A DNA stretch of 64,000 bases from a virus. Taxonomy: Duplodnaviria > Caudoviricetes. The position numbers and the translations under genes are program-made. The DNA is taken from positions 1,951 to 65,950 of the IMG/VR virus record IMGVR_UViG_3300033068_001013; one strand, written 5' to 3'. Below, in pieces: positions 1-63,612 of this stretch; within the stretch, counting starts at the first letter, position 1, and every line of letters starts with the position of its first letter. The notes beneath the pieces are model-generated. The model worked only from the letters and a program-made list of their open reading frames with translations, was not told the DNA's origin and made no database searches.

Positions 1-191
1 AGATCCATATACTCTTGTTTCCCATTCTCACCAATCTGCAAGCGAATTCCAGTTCGTGAATCAAAATACACCTTCCACACCGGCCCGACTGTAAGAAGTA
101 CATTCGTTAGATCCACAGTCTTGATCATTTGAACATACTTTCCAACAAGAGCATTCGAAACAATTTTATCCAAAGTCAACGTCTCAGACAT
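1..191 (-). CDS. hypothetical protein, truncated by window edge
   Basis: Manual translation MSETLTLDKIVSNALVGKYVQ... is open to base 1; GGAGG SD at 200-204; overlaps the ThiF stop. Confidence 0.6.
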   Translation of the reverse strand, partial: MSETLTLDKIVSNALVGKYVQMIKTVDLTNVLLTVGPVWKVYFDSRTGIRLQIGENGKQEYMD

Positions 192-768
192 AAACATCAC
201 CTCCAACTCTGAACTGAAAATCGCTCACGCGTTCTCCGTGAACCACATATCTCAACACCGCTTCCGCGCCGACTCCAGCCGCCATATAGCTTTGAGCCAT
301 ATTCGGAATCGCTGAATACCCCCCTCCCGGAGGTCCACTCAACGGCAATCCCCAAGCGACCACAACCACGCCATTGCCGTCATAACTAACTCGCATCAAC
401 TCAGCGCCCATGGCCCGGGCATTCGCCCACATTTCTCGTCGAGGCTCAAGTCCCATATCCGTGCAATCCACAACGAGTGTTTGGTTATCCGCGCCTTCCG
501 TCCCATCCCAGCGACGAGGGATATATTTAACATTCTCCCCGTCACCCATCACAAATTCCAAGTATCCTTCCAACAAATTCAACTTGGTCTCAGTCGGGGA
601 GTAGGACTTAGGCAATCGACGATGACCGTTACCACCTTGAAGAGTATCATCATCCCAAACCTCAATCTGGGTCGTATGAAACTCCCGCGCAAGAGCGGCG
701 ACGAGATGAAATCCAACGCCACCGGCTCCAACAACCAGGATCTTCGTAAAAACTTTCGGTTCCGACAT
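184..768 (-). CDS. ThiF/MoeB/E1-like adenylating enzyme
   Basis: ILVVGAGGVG nucleotide-binding loop, VWDDD, NGHRR, TKL and VVDCTD motifs in canonical E1/ThiF order. Confidence 0.85.
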   Translation of the reverse strand: MSEPKVFTKILVVGAGGVGFHLVAALAREFHTTQIEVWDDDTLQGGNGHRRLPKSYSPTETKLNLLEGYLEFVMGDGENVKYIPRRWDGTEGADNQTLVVDCTDMGLEPRREMWANARAMGAELMRVSYDGNGVVVVAWGLPLSGPPGGGYSAIPNMAQSYMAAGVGAEAVLRYVVHGERVSDFQFRVGGDVYV

Positions 769-770
769 AA

Positions 771-1445
771 TTACCTCCGAGTTACTTTATAGTACTTAAT
801 CCCTCGAATAGATGGGCGTTGGGTGGATGCTAGAGTAAGTAATCCACGATCCCCCTCATATGCAAGAGTCACATACTTCTCCCCCATTACCTCACTGAGG
901 CTAGCTGCGAGCGGAGCAAGTTTTTCGTACATCACTTTTGCTCTCGTAGGATAGATCCAGTTCCCAACCAGATAGTACCTGCCGTGGTTGAATTCCACAT
1001 CGAGCGTAAGATCCCGATGTTTTCTTATCAACTCCGACATGTAGTCTCTTTCGGTTTTAACTCGCGCGATATCCTCATCGGGAGGGGAGATTACAAAAGC
1101 GGGGTCACGAGGGTCCACAATCTTTAGTCGCCTCCAACGTACATCAAACTCTTTCAACACTCTTTCAACGTTGAATAGATCCTCATTACGACTAATGTAA
1201 TATCCCCAAACTTGTTCTTCCGCGCCATCAACCCCTTGCACTATATAACTCCCCGATCCCCAATCAAACATCCGATTGAAGATATATTGCATAGGCACTT
1301 TAGCTGAACTTGACATTCTAAGTCCCATTAGGATCACCTCCTGTGCATCGTGAACATGAATCACCCGTATAAGCGGTCTCGCAATCCAAACATTGTTTCG
1401 CTTCAGCGGGAATGCAGGCTTGGTGGATGTATATCCACTCAACAC
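771..1445 (-). CDS. hypothetical protein (true start probably near 1325)
   Basis: ORF track; lies between the E2-like and E1-like genes with tight coupling. Confidence 0.6.
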   Translation of the reverse strand: MLSGYTSTKPAFPLKRNNVWIARPLIRVIHVHDAQEVILMGLRMSSSAKVPMQYIFNRMFDWGSGSYIVQGVDGAEEQVWGYYISRNEDLFNVERVLKEFDVRWRRLKIVDPRDPAFVISPPDEDIARVKTERDYMSELIRKHRDLTLDVEFNHGRYYLVGNWIYPTRAKVMYEKLAPLAASLSEVMGEKYVTLAYEGDRGLLTLASTQRPSIRGIKYYKVTRR

Positions 1446-2046
1446 CTGGAATATCCATCTTATTCACCCACATATTTTCAAGATAATCCCGTTCCTTGCA
1501 TCCCGCACACAACGCCGTTCGTGCCGCAGTACACGCGCTACAAATCGTACCTCCGGTTCTGGTAACTGTAGTCGAATTAGATCGCACGAGTTGTCTGCAC
1601 AAGTTACACATGACCAGGGGATCATTGGGATTCCTAGAACACCTATGCCCCATTTCAATAACCCACTCTGGAACATTAAAGAACCCATTTCCCGGGTTCA
1701 ATCCCATCGTCAAGGCTTGAATAGCGTCTTCGCTGCTACCCATGCAGATACTGCCCCCATCCCCTACATGGGGATGGCAGCGATGAACCACCACTTGTCT
1801 CGTACCGCTTCCCGTCTCCTCTGCACAATACAGCACCGATTTTCGAGACGTATCCACCACATAAATCCGACTAACCTTGAATCCCTGGGAACAAAAAGGG
1901 CACAAGATTTCTGGCTTATCCAACACCACTATTCCGCGTCGAAGGGACCAAGCATATTCATTTTCGGGTTTTTCCAAATACTCCCGCTTACGTTCCAATA
2001 TCCGAGAGGATAGGGCCCGAAAAGCTCCAAACTGTTCTCTTCCCAT
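1318..2046 (-). CDS. prokaryotic E2-like (UBC-fold) protein with C-terminal Cys-rich Zn-finger repeats
   Basis: HPHVGDGGSICMG matches the E2 HPN(x)nIC signature (Cys codon 1744-1746); CPFC, CNLC, CSAC, CAGC, CLDC and CSRC pairs. Confidence 0.6.
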   Translation of the reverse strand: MGREQFGAFRALSSRILERKREYLEKPENEYAWSLRRGIVVLDKPEILCPFCSQGFKVSRIYVVDTSRKSVLYCAEETGSGTRQVVVHRCHPHVGDGGSICMGSSEDAIQALTMGLNPGNGFFNVPEWVIEMGHRCSRNPNDPLVMCNLCRQLVRSNSTTVTRTGGTICSACTAARTALCAGCKERDYLENMWVNKMDIPGVEWIYIHQACIPAEAKQCLDCETAYTGDSCSRCTGGDPNGT

Positions 2047-2054
2047 ATCTCCCC

Positions 2055-3155
2055 CTATTGACGATAATCAAACACCGTCCAGGACGACCCCGCCACTTCA
2101 ATCTCAGACCCATTCGGAGATCGCCACGTACCCTCAATCAACACAGCCATCTGAGCTCCGTTAATGGCGATCTTGGAAACGGGTCGATCCGTGGTAAACA
2201 ACTTCGACATGGCCCCCAACACAATCCCTGAAAGCATCCGCGCCAAGGCCTTTTCAAACTCTTCCAACACTTCAGGATCACGCGAGAATCCAAACATGTC
2301 CGCGATAGCCATCGTGGTCGAGATTTCAAACTGGCGTGTATCAACGTTGCGTTGTTTGATTCCGACATAGATGACATTACAAGCCTCTGCCTGATTCTCC
2401 CAATAACCGCCACGAACCAGAACCGGTCTCCCGTTCACATACAACACAATCGTGTCAGAAAAATCCCAGTCCAGGTATTCTTCTTTCAATTGCGAAAGTA
2501 TCCAGGCACGAATCTTCGTCAACGCCTCCGGATTCCACTGCGGATTATCGCGCCAATCAAACGTCGCACTTACACTCAAAGGCATACCAATCTCCTGTTC
2601 TTCGTTGTTGGTGAGAGGTGGGTAAAACCTCTCTGGGTTTGCAAAAATTTCTCCAGATCGAATAGTGTCACACACGGGACACGCACGCTGACACAAATCT
2701 CGTGGATCAAAGGTGAATAAATGACGCCTGACCACATTCAGATTTCCGTGTAGCTCCTGCACCAGATCTTGCTCTTGAACTGACTGAATTTGTTCTGGAG
2801 TCAGATTCCAGCGATTCTCTATCGGAAGATATGACTCGTAACGAGGTATCGGAACGGGTGGGTAATGTTCAAATCTCATTTCTTCTAAACTCCTGGGGGT
2901 TGTTCTTGTTGTGAAACTAGGAAGGGTGTAAGAAGCGATAGAGTCATAATAAATCGGATCTGGACTATTTATCATTTCGAACATGGTTCGAGTTGGATCA
3001 CGAAAAGGCGTAGGTGTGGTATAAGCCTCCAACATTTCAGCTACATTAATCCTAGGTATCGCCCGATCTATTTCCTCAAGCTGATTCAAAGCATCTAATA
3101 GTTGGAGATTCATATCTACCTCTCCGTACCTCCTCGGTACTGATCGTAATCCCAA
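2055..3155 (-). CDS. hypothetical protein; possible internal start at 2585
   Basis: ORF track; AGGAG SD 6 nt before the internal ATG (MPLSV...). Confidence 0.6.
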   Translation of the reverse strand: MGLRSVPRRYGEVDMNLQLLDALNQLEEIDRAIPRINVAEMLEAYTTPTPFRDPTRTMFEMINSPDPIYYDSIASYTLPSFTTRTTPRSLEEMRFEHYPPVPIPRYESYLPIENRWNLTPEQIQSVQEQDLVQELHGNLNVVRRHLFTFDPRDLCQRACPVCDTIRSGEIFANPERFYPPLTNNEEQEIGMPLSVSATFDWRDNPQWNPEALTKIRAWILSQLKEEYLDWDFSDTIVLYVNGRPVLVRGGYWENQAEACNVIYVGIKQRNVDTRQFEISTTMAIADMFGFSRDPEVLEEFEKALARMLSGIVLGAMSKLFTTDRPVSKIAINGAQMAVLIEGTWRSPNGSEIEVAGSSWTVFDYRQ

Positions 3156-3442
3156 ATAACCATTCCCTGAGTCTTATCATCCCCCTCGACCCAATCAGTG
3201 CGCAACTCTGGAACCTTAATCTCCAACTCCGCCACATCCATTGCCTCAATATACAATCTATCCACCGGAACATCCGACTGCACACCCTGTTTCCAGCAGA
3301 AACGGTAATGAGCCCTCACAATTTCGTCCACGCGATCTCGAACCTCCTCACGCAATTGTCGATATCTCTCCACAACCTTCTCAGAGATTTTCGTCATTAC
3401 CCCCTCCATGCTGTGTAGGCCACCAGTAATCAATTCCCCCAA
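3116..3442 (-). CDS. hypothetical protein
   Basis: ORF track, operon-like packing. Confidence 0.55.
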   Translation of the reverse strand: MGELITGGLHSMEGVMTKISEKVVERYRQLREEVRDRVDEIVRAHYRFCWKQGVQSDVPVDRLYIEAMDVAELEIKVPELRTDWVEGDDKTQGMVIWDYDQYRGGTER

Positions 3443-3836
3443 CCAACTCTGGCCATTTTACTTGATAATACTCCGGCATTTTCGCAATAAGCGCACGACG
3501 ATGAGACTCTATCAACTTTGGATGATCTCTCCACCAGGGTTTGTTGAACTCACTTTCATCAAGACCTCCATCATGATAAACCTCTTCAAACTCCTCGAAC
3601 AATTTACAAGCCATCCCACGACTCATCGCCTCCTCGCACATCCTAAGTCCATATCCAATCAATCTCCCCCTATACCCTCTCCACATTTGCACGGCCGGAT
3701 GTGTTTGCCATCCATAGCTCTTATACGTCAGAGCTTTATAAATCTGCCACACTTCCACAATCTGCTTATTCAATCTGCGCTGATCCAGCGTCTCCGCTAT
3801 CAGCTTCGCTGAACAGTCCGTTATGAATGTTTGCAC
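3381..3836 (-). CDS. pyrimidine-dimer DNA glycosylase (T4 endonuclease V/MSMEG_6728-like family)
   Basis: MQTF...LDQRRLNKQIVE.WQI...GWQTHPAVQMWRGY family pattern. Confidence 0.8.
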   Translation of the reverse strand: MQTFITDCSAKLIAETLDQRRLNKQIVEVWQIYKALTYKSYGWQTHPAVQMWRGYRGRLIGYGLRMCEEAMSRGMACKLFEEFEEVYHDGGLDESEFNKPWWRDHPKLIESHRRALIAKMPEYYQVKWPELVGGIDYWWPTQHGGGNDENL

Positions 3837-6609: not shown

Positions 6610-6683
6610 TACCCCCGGCAGGATTCGAACCTGCGACAAGCGGGTTAGAAACCCACTGCTCTATCCAGCTGAGCTACGGAGGC
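6610..6683 (-). tRNA. tRNA-Arg(UCU)
   Basis: Full cloverleaf GCCTCCG/CGGGGGT, D arm GCTC/GAGC, loop TT-TCT-AA, T loop TTCGAAT; no encoded CCA. Confidence 0.93.
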
Positions 6684-57421: not shown

Positions 57422-57738
57422 TATGACCTCTCATGACAGGTGTTATCAGGTACAGCAGACCAATCAATACCAGTGCGTTGTGAATCACGATGTCGTACTT
57501 CACATTCACTGGCATGATCTGCAAAGTTGTATAGATTCCCACAGACATCACACTTGTGCTTGAATGCCGGGGTTACGCGATCTTTAGGACAACGATCAAC
57601 ATTTCGGGCGTATTCAGTTTGACAAGCCCCACAGAAGCGGACAAGACTAGGCATCTTCCACCTCCTCGGTCTGAGCTCCACGAATTGCAGCCATTGCATC
57701 AGCAAGACGTTGAATCTCCGCAAGCTGTTCCTTGCCAA
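57421..57738 (-). CDS. Zn-finger protein (start probably MPSL)
   Basis: CGAC, CPKD, CDVC...C...H. Confidence 0.5.
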   Translation of the reverse strand: MARNSLRRFNVLLMQWLQFVELRPRRWKMPSLVRFCGACQTEYARNVDRCPKDRVTPAFKHKCDVCGNLYNFADHASECEVRHRDSQRTGIDWSAVPDNTCHERS

Positions 57739-58675
57739 AGGTAGGCAACCAGGGGTTGAGTTCTTCCGCCGTAGCGACTTCGCCTTCAGCAGGGTTTAGC
57801 AGATCAGCGGGATTACGGAGATAGTTATAGATCGTCGCAAAGTTTGCTTTCGGAAGTTTCGTAGGCAATCGCCGACGGACTTTCAACTCACCGGCTTCTT
57901 CATCCCATTCCATTTCAGCGAGCTGTTCTTTCATGACCAATGCCGAGGGGGCCGGCATGTATTTTGGGAGCCCCTGAACCAAAACCAACGACGCTACGGA
58001 GAGTTCATGCCACACAGCGAGGTCCGTGATTTTGAACTTGTTCAACAAAGGAGTGCCATTATTCCAAGGGGTACGGGGCTGGAAGGTGGCGATGATGGCA
58101 CGAATTCCTTTGGATTGGGCAATGGAGAATAGAGACTTGAGAATGTAATTCACTCCCGGCCATGCCCCACCGTAATTGCCTTTGAGAGCGCGTTCGGGGT
58201 CAATGCCATACGACATCGGGGAACGTTTCACTTCTGCCAAACACCCATCCTGCAACCATCCAGCATTATCCAGAATAAGCGTAGTGAACCGGTTAGCGGG
58301 GATGGAATCGAATGCTGCCTTAATCATATTAAAAACATGAATAGGGCGAAAGTTGTAGCCATAGGTATCAGCACACATATCAAGGATGGGCAGATATCCT
58401 CCAACCTTGGTTTGTCTTGCAAGAGACTCACCTTTGGATTCGAAGTCAAGCATCAGGATGTTTTGTCCACGATCAGCTCCAAGGGCGAAGGTGGTTTTAC
58501 CGCGACCCCGAATACCCGTTACGAGAACAAGTCCATTAAAATCCGGAGGGATGATAGACGGAACTCGTTCACCTTCGAACGTGATAATCGGAAGTGTTGG
58601 CTCAATTGGAGTTGGTGTTGGAGTCGAGGTCGCTGGACGTGCGGCCGGTGTTGGCGGTTTCGTTTGAATTGCCAT
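57647..58675 (-). CDS. Sak4-like/AAA_24 P-loop ATPase (recombination)
   Basis: GIRGRGKTT Walker A, LDFE, LILDN Walker B. Confidence 0.75.
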   Translation of the reverse strand: MAIQTKPPTPAARPATSTPTPTPIEPTLPIITFEGERVPSIIPPDFNGLVLVTGIRGRGKTTFALGADRGQNILMLDFESKGESLARQTKVGGYLPILDMCADTYGYNFRPIHVFNMIKAAFDSIPANRFTTLILDNAGWLQDGCLAEVKRSPMSYGIDPERALKGNYGGAWPGVNYILKSLFSIAQSKGIRAIIATFQPRTPWNNGTPLLNKFKITDLAVWHELSVASLVLVQGLPKYMPAPSALVMKEQLAEMEWDEEAGELKVRRRLPTKLPKANFATIYNYLRNPADLLNPAEGEVATAEELNPWLPTFGKEQLAEIQRLADAMAAIRGAQTEEVEDA

Positions 58676-59933
58676 TGGTATCCTTTCCTAAGATAAGTAT
58701 CTCAATTGGATGGTTCGGTTCTCGAACTTGTAACTTTCCATTTATCAATCGCGCTTGGAGGGAGTCCGCTCCCCAGCAGATATCATAAAACTGACAAGGT
58801 TTATTGAAGTCATAACAACAGGACGAGTCTCGATAGAACTCCTCGTCAACAGTCTTACCAATGTTCACCATGGCAATCTGCGTCATGAATCGGATCTCGC
58901 GATTGACCGCAGATGCGAGCCAGCGTTCTGCCTGGGGGCGATTCCAGGGTTGAATCATTGGGATAGCGATAGCCTCAGCTAACCAGTCTCGTTCACGTTC
59001 GGTATCCACAAGTCCCAGATCCAACCATTCAAACCATTCATTTACATCCATCACCTCCCAGATGTCAACCCGTTCGAAGGTGGAACCAAGCTTGTGGGTT
59101 TTACCATCCTCGCCAGTCCAAGATCCAACCATACGAAAGTCAGAAGGTTGGGGGGCTCCGACGAGGTTCTTTCGTAGCCAGGGTCGGATAAGAGTGGAAG
59201 AATAACGTCGGGCTCCGCCTAAGTTCGAGTCTCGTTGTTTCTCTCCTTTGAGGAAGTAGATGTATTGAATGCCTTCGCAATCCCGTCCGTAACGATGCGT
59301 GATGGCCCAACCTTCCGTGATACGTTGCAAGTCTGAACGGAATTTGTTGAGCTGTTCAACATCGTAGGAAGCTGCTGTTTTGTAGCTGACTCCGATGAGA
59401 GCGTCTGTAATGCGGTCCTTCAAGATCACATCTGGACGGGATGCAACAATGGCGACTTGAGATTCGAAATCTTCGGTGTATAAAGGCCAGTTGATTTCGT
59501 CTTCGATGGAGACGATCTCGTATTGGGATTTGAAATTATCCAAGTGACGCCTTGCGAAGGTTTTAACAAGTATCTGAGCAAGGATAGCTTGTTCGAGGCG
59601 AATTTTTGCAAGAGCATCTGGACCCAGCAACTCCAACAATTGAGCCTCTCCGAAAGCGATCTGTGCTTTTGATACTTCGTCGTATGCCGCCTGACACGCG
59701 GTATCTTCAGGGTGTTCAAGCAGCAACAACTCAAGTCCCTTATGCACCGCACTACCAAGAACGAGTTCCTCGTTTTTGTAGATTGAGTCCACTCCGATGT
59801 TTGCAGGCCCGGAATGATATTTAGCCCAGCGCTTCCAGTCACATGAAATGGTCATACGAGAACGGTCAGTGATCCACTGGATTTGGTCTGGCCGATAATC
59901 CCAAGACTTTCCGCTGTCCCATACGGTCACCAT
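58602..59933 (-). CDS. PD-(D/E)XK Cas4/RecB-like nuclease with Fe-S cysteines
   Basis: GSAVHKGLE, SIEDEI, RPDVIL, SYKTA, N-terminal C plus C-terminal C.....PC.F...C. Confidence 0.75.
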   Translation of the reverse strand: MVTVWDSGKSWDYRPDQIQWITDRSRMTISCDWKRWAKYHSGPANIGVDSIYKNEELVLGSAVHKGLELLLLEHPEDTACQAAYDEVSKAQIAFGEAQLLELLGPDALAKIRLEQAILAQILVKTFARRHLDNFKSQYEIVSIEDEINWPLYTEDFESQVAIVASRPDVILKDRITDALIGVSYKTAASYDVEQLNKFRSDLQRITEGWAITHRYGRDCEGIQYIYFLKGEKQRDSNLGGARRYSSTLIRPWLRKNLVGAPQPSDFRMVGSWTGEDGKTHKLGSTFERVDIWEVMDVNEWFEWLDLGLVDTERERDWLAEAIAIPMIQPWNRPQAERWLASAVNREIRFMTQIAMVNIGKTVDEEFYRDSSCCYDFNKPCQFYDICWGADSLQARLINGKLQVREPNHPIEILILGKDTNGNSNETANTGRTSSDLDSNTNSN

Positions 59934-60065
59934 ATGATTAACCCTCCTGCAAGCATAATCGCGACTAGGATAATTTGGAGTGAGGTTTTAATAACCTTTC
60001 CATCAAGTCGAGCCTCCGGACAGGGGTGGATGGTATGGCCCTTGACTTTATATCCAATAACTTCT

Positions 60066-60332
60066 CTAACTTTCTGCATCATCTGATTCCTCTAGCCATT
60101 TAACGATGGCGTTTTTGATAATTGTTTTCAGGGCAAGTAAGGTTTCGTAATCACCCAACGTTAGCGAGATCGACCAACGAGGCCAACGAATCGCTTTTCC
60201 ATTCTCGACATCTTCGACGAGAAGGACGATCTTGGCACGTACTTGATTTGGACTATCCCCCCAGCGTGAATTATACAATAAGCGACTAAATAGTGTTCGT
60301 GGTCTGTTCACCCCACCAAATCTTCCAAGCAT
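60066..60332 (-). CDS. hypothetical protein
   Basis: ORF track. Confidence 0.45.
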   Translation of the reverse strand: MLGRFGGVNRPRTLFSRLLYNSRWGDSPNQVRAKIVLLVEDVENGKAIRWPRWSISLTLGDYETLLALKTIIKNAIVKWLEESDDAES

Positions 60333-61546
60333 CTTACCCTCTCTTCAGTCCAGTCATTTATCTTCCACCAAACAAGTCCAGAGGATTCTTCTTTGATAAG
60401 AATATCCGCAGCGGCTAGTTCGTTGCAAGTACGGTCGAGGGTGGCCGGACTCAAACTTGTATGCCCAAGTTTACGAGCAAGCGTCAGGATATCTGCTGAC
60501 GGTACGGATTCCATTTTACGTTCATAACATATCTGTCGAATGGTTTGAGTGATAAACCACCGTCTCGGGGGGATGGAATCAATGGCGATTCGTTGAGCAA
60601 TTTCGAAGTCTTCCTTGGAGAGTGTGGTCCGTTTCATCAACTTCGAATGAGCTTTCGCGGTTAACCAACAAGCGGTCATGATCCGACCTGGACCTTCGGT
60701 ATCTGAGACATCTGTAATCTGTCCCTGACGATCTCGATCCACTGATCGCCTATACCGAGCAACAAGTGAGGCAACGAGATGAAGACCAGAAGCTTCGACT
60801 TCACTTCTGGTTAGTCGTTCTGTGGATGGGACTAAAGATCCTTCAAGCCATTCTCGTACATATCTCCCCAGTTCCTCCCGCATATCATGTCGATCATCTT
60901 GAACAGAGGCTTGCAATGCAAGCTGTTCCATGTCCCCCACTCTCCAGCGGACATATAAGAATCTCTCCCCAAGATCCCGCATCAACGACCAAGCTTTTTC
61001 GGCAGCACGGGTGGCTCCGCAGAGGATAGTACACTTCCCTTTCCATTCCTCTGTCTTTCCAATCCCCCAGTTCTTGGAGATGGAGCCGTCATAGACTTCT
61101 CTAAACTGAGATCCGATGGCATTTTTCGCATCACCACTCATGGATGAGATTGAAGAAAAGTCTGAGATCCAGAAGATAATAGACTCCCCAAGACGTCGCA
61201 GGAGTCCGGTTTCGCCGGACTTCTCCCCGGCCCTCCAACCACTCAGCAACGTTTTATCAGTGAGATTTGATAAAGTATAAACATCCTGAATGTGTTCCAG
61301 GATGGGCCCAACTTGACTTGTTTTCCCAGACCCGGATGGCCCAATCAACATCAACCATACTGGGGATGCTTGAGGAAAAATATGATGGGCGGCAGCTGCA
61401 GACGCCATAACCCGGATACCTTGGAGGTCTGGTTCATGGAAATAATCCTCCATCAATCCGGCCACTTTTTCCCACCGAATCGCGGCTTGACGCTCTTCGA
61501 AGGGGAAGGGCTTAAGTGTTTCAGTTTCAATAACTTGCGGTTCCAT
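60308..61546 (-). CDS. AAA+ (MCM-like) replicative helicase-like ATPase with C-terminal wHTH
   Basis: LIGPSGSGKT Walker A, FWISDF Walker B, REVYDG, CGAT sensor, LGERFL arginine finger. Confidence 0.7.
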   Translation of the reverse strand: MEPQVIETETLKPFPFEERQAAIRWEKVAGLMEDYFHEPDLQGIRVMASAAAAHHIFPQASPVWLMLIGPSGSGKTSQVGPILEHIQDVYTLSNLTDKTLLSGWRAGEKSGETGLLRRLGESIIFWISDFSSISSMSGDAKNAIGSQFREVYDGSISKNWGIGKTEEWKGKCTILCGATRAAEKAWSLMRDLGERFLYVRWRVGDMEQLALQASVQDDRHDMREELGRYVREWLEGSLVPSTERLTRSEVEASGLHLVASLVARYRRSVDRDRQGQITDVSDTEGPGRIMTACWLTAKAHSKLMKRTTLSKEDFEIAQRIAIDSIPPRRWFITQTIRQICYERKMESVPSADILTLARKLGHTSLSPATLDRTCNELAAADILIKEESSGLVWWKINDWTEERVRCLEDLVG

Positions 61547-62256: not shown

Positions 62257-62537
62257 TCAAGTCTCCTTTCATAAAACCTCCCTAATCCAACTTGAGAACA
62301 TTGCACCAATTCATCAATCATTTCCTGCATCTCCAAGTCATTCACAAATTCAACCGCAACTCCATTGAGTGGAGTTTCGTGGTTGACCTCCCAAAAATCA
62401 ACTGCAATGGGGAAGAAGCTTATCTCACTAAGCAACTTCCCCCCGCAGGTGAGTTTCCAGACCAGGGCCGGAGGTGGGGTCAAACTCTCACGGTAGGTCG
62501 GCGGTCCGGCTAATATCGTCCTTGATGCTTGTTTCAT
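62253..62537 (-). CDS. hypothetical protein
   Basis: ORF track. Confidence 0.45.
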   Translation of the reverse strand: MKQASRTILAGPPTYRESLTPPPALVWKLTCGGKLLSEISFFPIAVDFWEVNHETPLNGVAVEFVNDLEMQEMIDELVQCSQVGLGRFYERRLE

Positions 62538-63612
62538 AGAACATACTATAGAACGTCATCTGCTCTTCAAACAAGGTATCGAGGAGATCTTCCTTTTGAG
62601 AAGAGGTCAGAGTGGACATCGTAGGATCTCGTTCGATAATCGCCATCAAGGTTTCTCGTGAACGCCACTCGGGGATGGTGGAGGCGAGCTTGGGTTCTTT
62701 CTCTTCGGCCGGAGGCAGGAGACGAAGATTGTGTTCAACGGCTGCGGCCGAAGAGTCTGCGACATCGGTCGAATAATCGGCGTAGGAACGATAATAATCC
62801 TCGTACGGGTCGATCTGCTGTACCAGCGCCCCCTTTCCCGAGTTCGCATGCGCGTCCCACTTGTAGCTGCGCCGTCCCGATCTGCCCGTAGCTTTGACCG
62901 AAACGGCTAGAGCTTTTGGGAGTTGGGTTGCGATCTGGGATTCGGGAAGGACTTCAGGAATAAAAGCTTTCTTCGCGTAATAGGTTTCTTCCAGACCACA
63001 GTCCGCTTTGGCGGCAATTTTAACTATCGAAGTGAGGGTAATGTTCGCCTTCGGACAATCCCCGAGATCGGTACCGATTGTGGTATCCCACACTTCGATC
63101 CATTCTTCGGGCCAGTCTTCAATAATCTCCCCAGTATCGGGGTCGGTGGGAACGATGGACATCGCACAGAGCCCGAGAGTTCCACAGTCCAACAAAACTT
63201 TCCCGACGGCTTTGTATTCGAAACCGAGAACCGATCCCTCGTCAGTTTCGATTTTGGTGGAAACGACAATTGAGGCACCGAATTTTTTATTGAAGTCCGT
63301 TACATCCGTGTCAGAAAAGAACGCCCCCATGCCATGGTGGGAATGCAACACACAGACATAGTTGGGTTCGACAACGAGGTTGTTGAATTTGACGGTCCCC
63401 ATTGTACGATCCTGATCGGGAACAACAAACCCGTCAATGACAACCTCCCGTCCGTTTGATCGACGTTCGCCAGTGAGAACAATCCCCCACTCATGACCTT
63501 TCTCTACTGCGAGAGTCGCGGTGAGTTCGATGAGGACGTTGGTGGGGATGTAAATTCTCCCCCGTATCCCCCGAGTACGTGGACAATCTGATGCGAATGG
63601 GATTGTGAACAT
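62488..63612 (-). CDS. JAB/MPN+ (JAMM) metalloisopeptidase
   Basis: E(WGIVL)...HSHHGMGAFFSDTD is the complete E...HxH-x7-S-x2-D motif. Confidence 0.88.
   Translation of the reverse strand: MFTIPFASDCPRTRGIRGRIYIPTNVLIELTATLAVEKGHEWGIVLTGERRSNGREVVIDGFVVPDQDRTMGTVKFNNLVVEPNYVCVLHSHHGMGAFFSDTDVTDFNKKFGASIVVSTKIETDEGSVLGFEYKAVGKVLLDCGTLGLCAMSIVPTDPDTGEIIEDWPEEWIEVWDTTIGTDLGDCPKANITLTSIVKIAAKADCGLEETYYAKKAFIPEVLPESQIATQLPKALAVSVKATGRSGRRSYKWDAHANSGKGALVQQIDPYEDYYRSYADYSTDVADSSAAAVEHNLRLLPPAEEKEPKLASTIPEWRSRETLMAIIERDPTMSTLTSSQKEDLLDTLFEEQMTFYSMFYETSIKDDISRTADLP

Follow-up and report, generated by a model that had tools for sequence, protein, structure and literature searches.

Five genes of a tailed phage, known from the IMG/VR record IMGVR_UViG_3300033068_001013, probably encode a ubiquitin-like (Ubl) protein conjugation system of the phage's own. 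We analysed a window of 64,000 nucleotides, the whole stretch under study, corresponding to bases 1951-65950 of one contig of 65,950 bp. Its minus strand carries genes for an E1-like adenylation enzyme, an E2-like protein, a JAMM/JAB metalloprotease (hereafter JAB) and a conserved partner protein that we call f3. The fifth gene lies just outside the window and encodes f4, a small protein with a glycine tail and the candidate modifier. A preliminary description of the window had reported a ThiF/E1 gene, an E2-like gene with the motif HPHV-x5-IC and a JAMM gene, and all three are present on the minus strand at the coordinates listed below; f3 and f4 were missing from that description. It had read these genes as a writer and eraser kit carried by the phage, and the catalytic motifs, the strict linkage of the five genes and the glycine tail of f4 support this reading.

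The record is a viral contig estimated to be 96% complete and classed by IMG/VR as linear. The element is recognizable as a phage from its plus strand, which encodes the large terminase, portal, scaffold and major head protein, while genes for a Sak4-like annealase, an exonuclease-like protein and a DenV-type glycosylase are found on the minus strand.

A five-gene cassette in related viral loci

The components of the cassette, and the open reading frame (ORF) inserted among them, are listed here with their lengths in amino acids (aa).

2055..3155, minus strand: f3, 366 aa, with its conserved part at residues ~114-366
1318..2046, minus strand: E2-like protein, 242 aa, with a UBC-like core (residues ~1-140), a zinc-ribbon insert and a CxxC zinc-finger tail (~140-235)
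771..1328, minus strand: inserted ORF, 185 aa, between the E2-like gene and E1
184..768, minus strand: minimal E1-like adenylation enzyme, 194 aa, without a conserved catalytic Cys
62488..63612, minus strand: JAMM/JAB metalloprotease, 374 aa, with the protease domain in the N-terminal ~170 aa and a variable C-terminal extension
Contig bases 370..669, minus strand (outside the window; locus L016): f4, candidate modifier, 99 aa, with the tail ...SAGAG-LR

We searched related viral loci with hidden Markov models (HMMs), 13 of them seeded from E1 (L001-L013) and three from distant E2-like proteins (L018-L020). Two pairs, L003/L004 and L006/L007, are near-duplicates, leaving 14 distinct loci. The genes for f4, f3, the E2-like protein, E1 and JAB were all found, in one order, in 16/16 related loci with enough flanking sequence. 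The E1, E2-like and JAB genes, which the preliminary description had treated as a set, thus co-occur in all of these phages. A homolog of f3 stands directly upstream of the E2-like gene in every related locus, and f4 has been relocated downstream of E1 in this phage and in L001. Many junctions within the cassette abut or overlap by 4 nt, and the cassette persists while the flanking genes vary between related phages. JAB directly follows E1 in nine relatives, with junctions ranging from -98 to +231 nt and values of -4, -1 or 0 in four of them.

The E2-like gene and E1 likewise abut or overlap by 4 nt in relatives, and an ORF intervenes between them only here and in L001. These two ORFs are unrelated (185 aa at 771..1328 here, 182 aa at 7466-8011 in L001; BLASTP E 0.84), and the one in the window matched no family in Pfam, PHROGs, NCBIfam or PADLOC. 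Judged by this distribution, the 185-aa ORF is probably specific to the lineage and not a core part of the cassette. The junction resembles a variable insertion slot inside the cassette. Promoter and terminator scans performed no better than chance, so that for the earlier proposal that E1 and the E2-like gene share one early operon we argue from strand, spacing and synteny only.

JAB had been placed at the far end of the window in the same orientation. This holds for its position and strand in the window, but the separation is most likely an artefact of linearisation, because the related contig L001, whose E1 is 77% identical, is collinear across both ends of the 65,950-bp contig. The collinear run extends from E1 across counterparts of the small genes that lie within the contig's first 1,950 bases and into the N-terminus of JAB, and the contig ends are probably genomic neighbours. 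If they are joined as they stand, a gap of ~2,521 nt separates E1 from JAB on the same strand, within one long minus-strand block, with f4 and several other small ORFs lying between the two. The corresponding spacing in L001 is about 240 nt longer, and the join may thus lack a short stretch. We detected no terminal repeat at the contig ends; together with the linear class, this also suggests that a few hundred bases may be missing there.

We then looked for the cassette outside these loci. PHROGs gave no match for f3, the E2-like protein, E1, JAB or the 185-aa inserted ORF. No relative of the E1, E2-like or JAB proteins was found by tBLASTn among 50,697 deposited phages, nor any relative of E1, the only component searched in this set, among 185,579 prokaryote species genomes with its profile. 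In the searchable literature we found no account of such a phage cassette; for phages, Iyer et al. (2006) list only the Ubl plus JAB of lambda/T1 tail assembly, and viral ThiF homologs have been reported in Asgard viruses. Two AT-rich viral contigs, L014 (1845-4410) and L015, carry a distant E1 (24% identical) paired with a JAB. Upstream of this pair are a 97-aa protein of MoaD/ThiS-like appearance ending in KAA and a 284-aa protein containing 'HYHQSRPDCWG', and the arrangement may represent a second, more distant cassette of this type.

Catalytic components and candidate modifier

The 194-aa protein matched Pfam ThiF at E 1.4e-4 (21.6 bits, below the curated cut-off of 28.1 bits) and was matched by the Cap2-type E1-E2 models of PADLOC at E 4e-5. 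We collected 126 homologs, mostly of ~185-230 aa and up to 267 aa, many of which are encoded on contigs of 40-73 kb. The invariant positions in 45 aligned members are G14xG16G17xG19, D39xD41, R51, K62 and D101-C-T-D104, comprising the adenylation-site motifs that mark the E1-like (ThiF/MoeB/Uba) superfamily (Rossmann nucleotide loop, Asp/Arg/Lys and the Mg-binding DxxD). No Cys is invariant across these 45 members and the crossover region is very short; the catalytic Cys that canonical ubiquitin-type E1s carry in or near the crossover loop was not found, and the family resembles ThiF, MoeB and the E1 of Bub in this respect. An E1 without a catalytic Cys has a precedent in Bub operons (PMC11601596). 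When compared with the PDB, the family profile matched at E values from 1.3e-5 to 9e-4, including TcdA (1.3e-5), ThiF (2.9e-5) and Cap2 (1.6e-4). Given the invariant motifs, the profile matches and the lack of an invariant Cys, the protein is, on its alignment, a minimal E1/ThiF-type adenylation domain without a thioester cysteine of its own.

The 242-aa protein carries the motif H91-P92-H93-V94, followed after five residues by I100-C101. An exhaustive HMMER search yielded 107 relatives, and conservation was scored over 106 sequences. In this alignment C49, C52, H91, P92 and C101 are invariant, H93 is conserved in at least 90%, and G103, H134 and C136 are nearly invariant. H91-P92-H93...C101 has the layout of UBC active sites, in which an HPN-type motif precedes the catalytic Cys by 7-10 residues. 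A profile restricted to the core aligned 'HPHvssggkiCl' to 'HPHVYSNGHICL' of UBE2W (residues ~78-92, over 13-15 residues), and five of the eight PDB matches of this core profile are E2 active sites, those of UBE2W and four others. The pattern HPHV-x3-G-x-IC is nearly identical to UBE2W residues 80-92, whereas no sequence similarity was detectable outside the motif; unlike UBE2W, the phage protein carries a zinc ribbon inserted into its beta-meander and is missing the final helices of the UBC fold.

We further examined the fold of this protein. An AlphaFold2 (AF2) model built on the alignment of relatives reached a predicted local distance difference test (pLDDT) score of 87.8, which makes it a confident model, and shows a UBC-like topology, beginning with a long N-terminal helix that is followed by a beta-meander, the HPH loop, Cys101, two helices and zinc-finger-like modules; folding from the single sequence was uninformative (pLDDT 38). 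E2s were the recurrent structural match, accounting for about half of the matches that cover the N-terminal domain and giving the longest alignments. The fold match is weak: a Foldseek search of the PDB returned nothing below E 0.001, and BFVD returned only partial matches of zinc-finger type. No curated model in Pfam, NCBIfam or PADLOC matched the window protein, and Pfam UQ_con, Prok-E2_B and Prok-E2_D had no match in the whole genome. Among the weak Pfam matches of the 106 relatives, UQ_con (best E 0.0096) and Prok-E2_D are the sole recurrent families other than zinc fingers, one or the other being matched by 5/106 relatives. The number of CxxC pairs varies from 0 to 10 among relatives, and those without the tail keep the core and the motif; because of this variation, we regard the C-terminal zinc fingers as accessory. 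The model and the motif together give moderate support for a UBC fold, and the 242-aa protein would contain a strongly diverged UBC domain into which a zinc ribbon is inserted. Separately, the E2-like query matched 28 separate stretches of the 5,690-aa protein P0128 (E 3e-15), the best of which covers query residues 49-130 including the HPH...C core, and 16 separate stretches of the 1,002-aa protein P0209 (E 2.6e-5). Both could be giant repeat proteins built from the E2-like domain.

The 374-aa protein is, by its profile match and metal site, an intact JAMM protease, as had been described. It scored above the Pfam Prok-JAB (PF14464) cut-off of 25 bits (33.1 bits, E 5.6e-8), and 15 relatives keep the metal-site residues E-W, H-S-H and S-x2-D without change. 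Two further invariant features, a C-G pair and a Pro, lie near residues ~150-165. The C-terminal extension (~residues 175-374) ranges from ~70 to 300 residues among relatives and gave no match.

Homologs of f4 are 51-125 aa long, and every one seen has the C-terminal pattern A-x-(A/G)-G with zero to two variable residues after it. Six distinct homologs end exactly at the Gly, five as ...AEAG and one as ...AEGG. A C-terminal Gly, bare or with a short tail, on a protein encoded inside the cassette of an E1 is what a ubiquitin-like modifier would present, and the tail is, by its pattern, the signature of a C-terminally matured modifier. We found no match for f4 to ThiS or any other family in Pfam, to NCBIfam or to PDB sequences. 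Its ESM Atlas model is poor (pLDDT 0.58) and, compared with ISG15-like tags, f4 is not recognizably beta-grasp or ISG15-like. The partner f3 had no match in Pfam, PHROGs, NCBIfam, PADLOC or PDB sequences. The only positions without variation are A, W, G and W, none of them a Cys, and f3 is for this reason probably not an enzyme.

Alternative readings and known systems

We considered whether conjugation could proceed without an E2, as in archaeal SAMP/UbaA and Thermus TtuB/TtuC, with the 242-aa protein serving only as a zinc-finger adaptor or regulator whose HPH...C residues bind metal. The weak fold match to E2s would fit such a role, as would the failure of the Pfam E2 models to detect the protein and its many zinc-binding motifs; C49, C52, H134 and C136 share the conservation of H91, H93 and C101. 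We consider this unlikely, however: the motif matches the UBE2W active site over 13-15 residues, E2s give the longest structural alignments among the matches that cover the N-terminal domain, and core and motif are retained where the zinc-finger tail is lost.

The cassette might instead donate sulfur, with f4 acting like ThiS, MoaD, CysO or QbsE and the E1 product being converted to a thiocarboxylate that passes sulfur to a cofactor, a nucleoside or DNA. JAB trimming of carrier tails by QbsD and Mec+ is known from such pathways and involves a Gly-Gly-plus-two tail; the E1 also lacks a catalytic Cys, like ThiF and MoeB, and ThiF is among the best PDB matches of its profile. This option is distinctly improbable in our view. 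Searches of the genome for ThiS-family, rhodanese or PP-loop proteins gave no match, in line with the earlier remark that thiamine and molybdopterin genes, which could explain the ThiF, are absent; f3 has no invariant Cys, and a strictly linked protein with an E2-type active-site motif would be left without a role. It is harder still to maintain, and we think very improbable, that the E1 acts on something other than a protein C-terminus, for instance on a tRNA base in the manner of TcdA or on a small peptide in the manner of MccB, and that its linkage to JAB and f4 is incidental or regulatory. TcdA is the best PDB match of the E1 profile and JGI labels one E1 homolog a t6A dehydratase, but all five genes are found together in every locus sampled, with translational coupling, and f4 has a glycine tail that is consistent with an E1 substrate.

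Compared with known systems, a Ubl conjugation cassette of this composition would work most like Bil or Bub, yet it departs from the defining features of both. It shares with Bil (BilABCD) separate genes for the Ubl, E2, JAB and E1 in one operon, an E2 with a catalytic Cys, and a JAB that trims or removes the tag. It differs from Bil in its E1, a single 194-aa domain without a conserved Cys in place of an IAD-AAD-Cys E1 (one adenylation domain that is inactive, one that is active, and a Cys), in the added conserved partner f3, in the zinc ribbon and zinc-finger tail of its E2, and in being carried by phages rather than bacterial defence islands. The Bil models of PADLOC had no match among the eight window proteins scanned. 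Bub (6E/DUF6527) offers a Cys-less E1, a tag-maturing JAB and a minimal UBC E2 as likenesses; its own features are an E2 in which Ser replaces Cys, a JAB fused to E1 and a DUF6527 protein (PMC11601596), whereas the phage cassette has an invariant E2 Cys, separate JAB and E1 genes and no DUF6527. Cap2/Cap3 of type II cyclic-oligonucleotide-based antiphage signalling systems (CBASS) also combine E2, E1 and JAB, and PADLOC Cap2 models and PDB Cap2 chains weakly match the phage E1. In Cap2, however, E2 and E1 are fused, the E1 has its Cys and the substrate is a CD-NTase, while the phage proteins are encoded by separate genes, a small glycine-tailed protein is dedicated to the system and the cassette contains no CD-NTase.

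A last comparison concerned the PRTRC cassette of plasmids and ICEs, which resembles the phage cassette in its carriage on mobile elements and its ThiF-like and JAB-like proteins. JAB matched PRTRC_A at E 6e-4 (19.4 bits against a cut-off of 101.8) and E1 matched PRTRC_ThiF at E 0.04 (13.2 bits against 144.75); the other PRTRC models gave no match and no ParB was found nearby. We rejected PRTRC membership, since all NCBIfam scores fall far below the curated cut-offs and no further PRTRC match was found.

Genomic setting, proposed pathway and significance

Just upstream of the cassette, at 3381..3836 (minus strand), the phage encodes a DenV-type pyrimidine-dimer DNA glycosylase (Pfam Pyr_excise, E 3.7e-16), which is kept in L001, L006 and L010. 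A tRNA-Arg(TCT) gene found by ARAGORN at 6610..6683 (minus strand) lies in the early block and is the sole DNA common to this phage and deposited phages. Downstream of JAB, the region 57647..61546 (minus strand) encodes an AAA-like ATPase of 412 aa (weak Pfam AAA matches) together with an exonuclease-like protein of 443 aa (phrog_1218) and a Sak4-like annealase (phrog_124). The exonuclease-like and Sak4-like genes (families f5 and f7) are syntenic with the cassette in several relatives.

The steps of transfer that we infer build on what the sequences show, namely the genes with their catalytic motifs, the strictness of their linkage and the glycine tail of f4. JAB would trim the 0-2 residues that follow the conserved C-terminal Gly of f4, exposing Gly97, and the minimal E1 would use ATP to adenylate this glycine. 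Because the E1 family has no conserved cysteine, we propose a direct attack on the acyl-adenylate by the E2-like protein through its invariant Cys101, giving a thioester. The E2-like protein, aided by its variable zinc-finger tail, by f3 or by both, would then pass f4 to an amino group of the target, and JAB would probably also reverse the mark. As the module is located in the early / DNA-metabolism block, its action is expected during takeover or replication.

We are evenly divided on a fuller picture, in which widespread uncultured and apparently lytic phages run a complete Ubl pathway of their own and use it early to mark host or phage proteins. The tag would be new and possibly not of the beta-grasp type, the E1 a bare adenylation domain, and the E2, fused to RING/LIM-like zinc fingers, an E2-E3 hybrid.

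In the searchable literature, bacterial Ubl conjugation is known as an anti-phage defence (Bil, type II CBASS) or from operons without an assigned role (Bub). If the proposed system is real, it would give viruses a counterpart to the Bil, Bub and CBASS defences of bacteria, and a complete, conserved and phage-borne system would show that bacterial viruses also use Ubl chemistry, as eukaryotic viruses do. It would also define a very small set of parts for minimal Ubl transfer, comprising a Cys-less E1 of 185-200 aa, a UBE2W-like HPH site and a tag of roughly 60 aa. The identity of the target could expose a new strategy of takeover or counter-defence.
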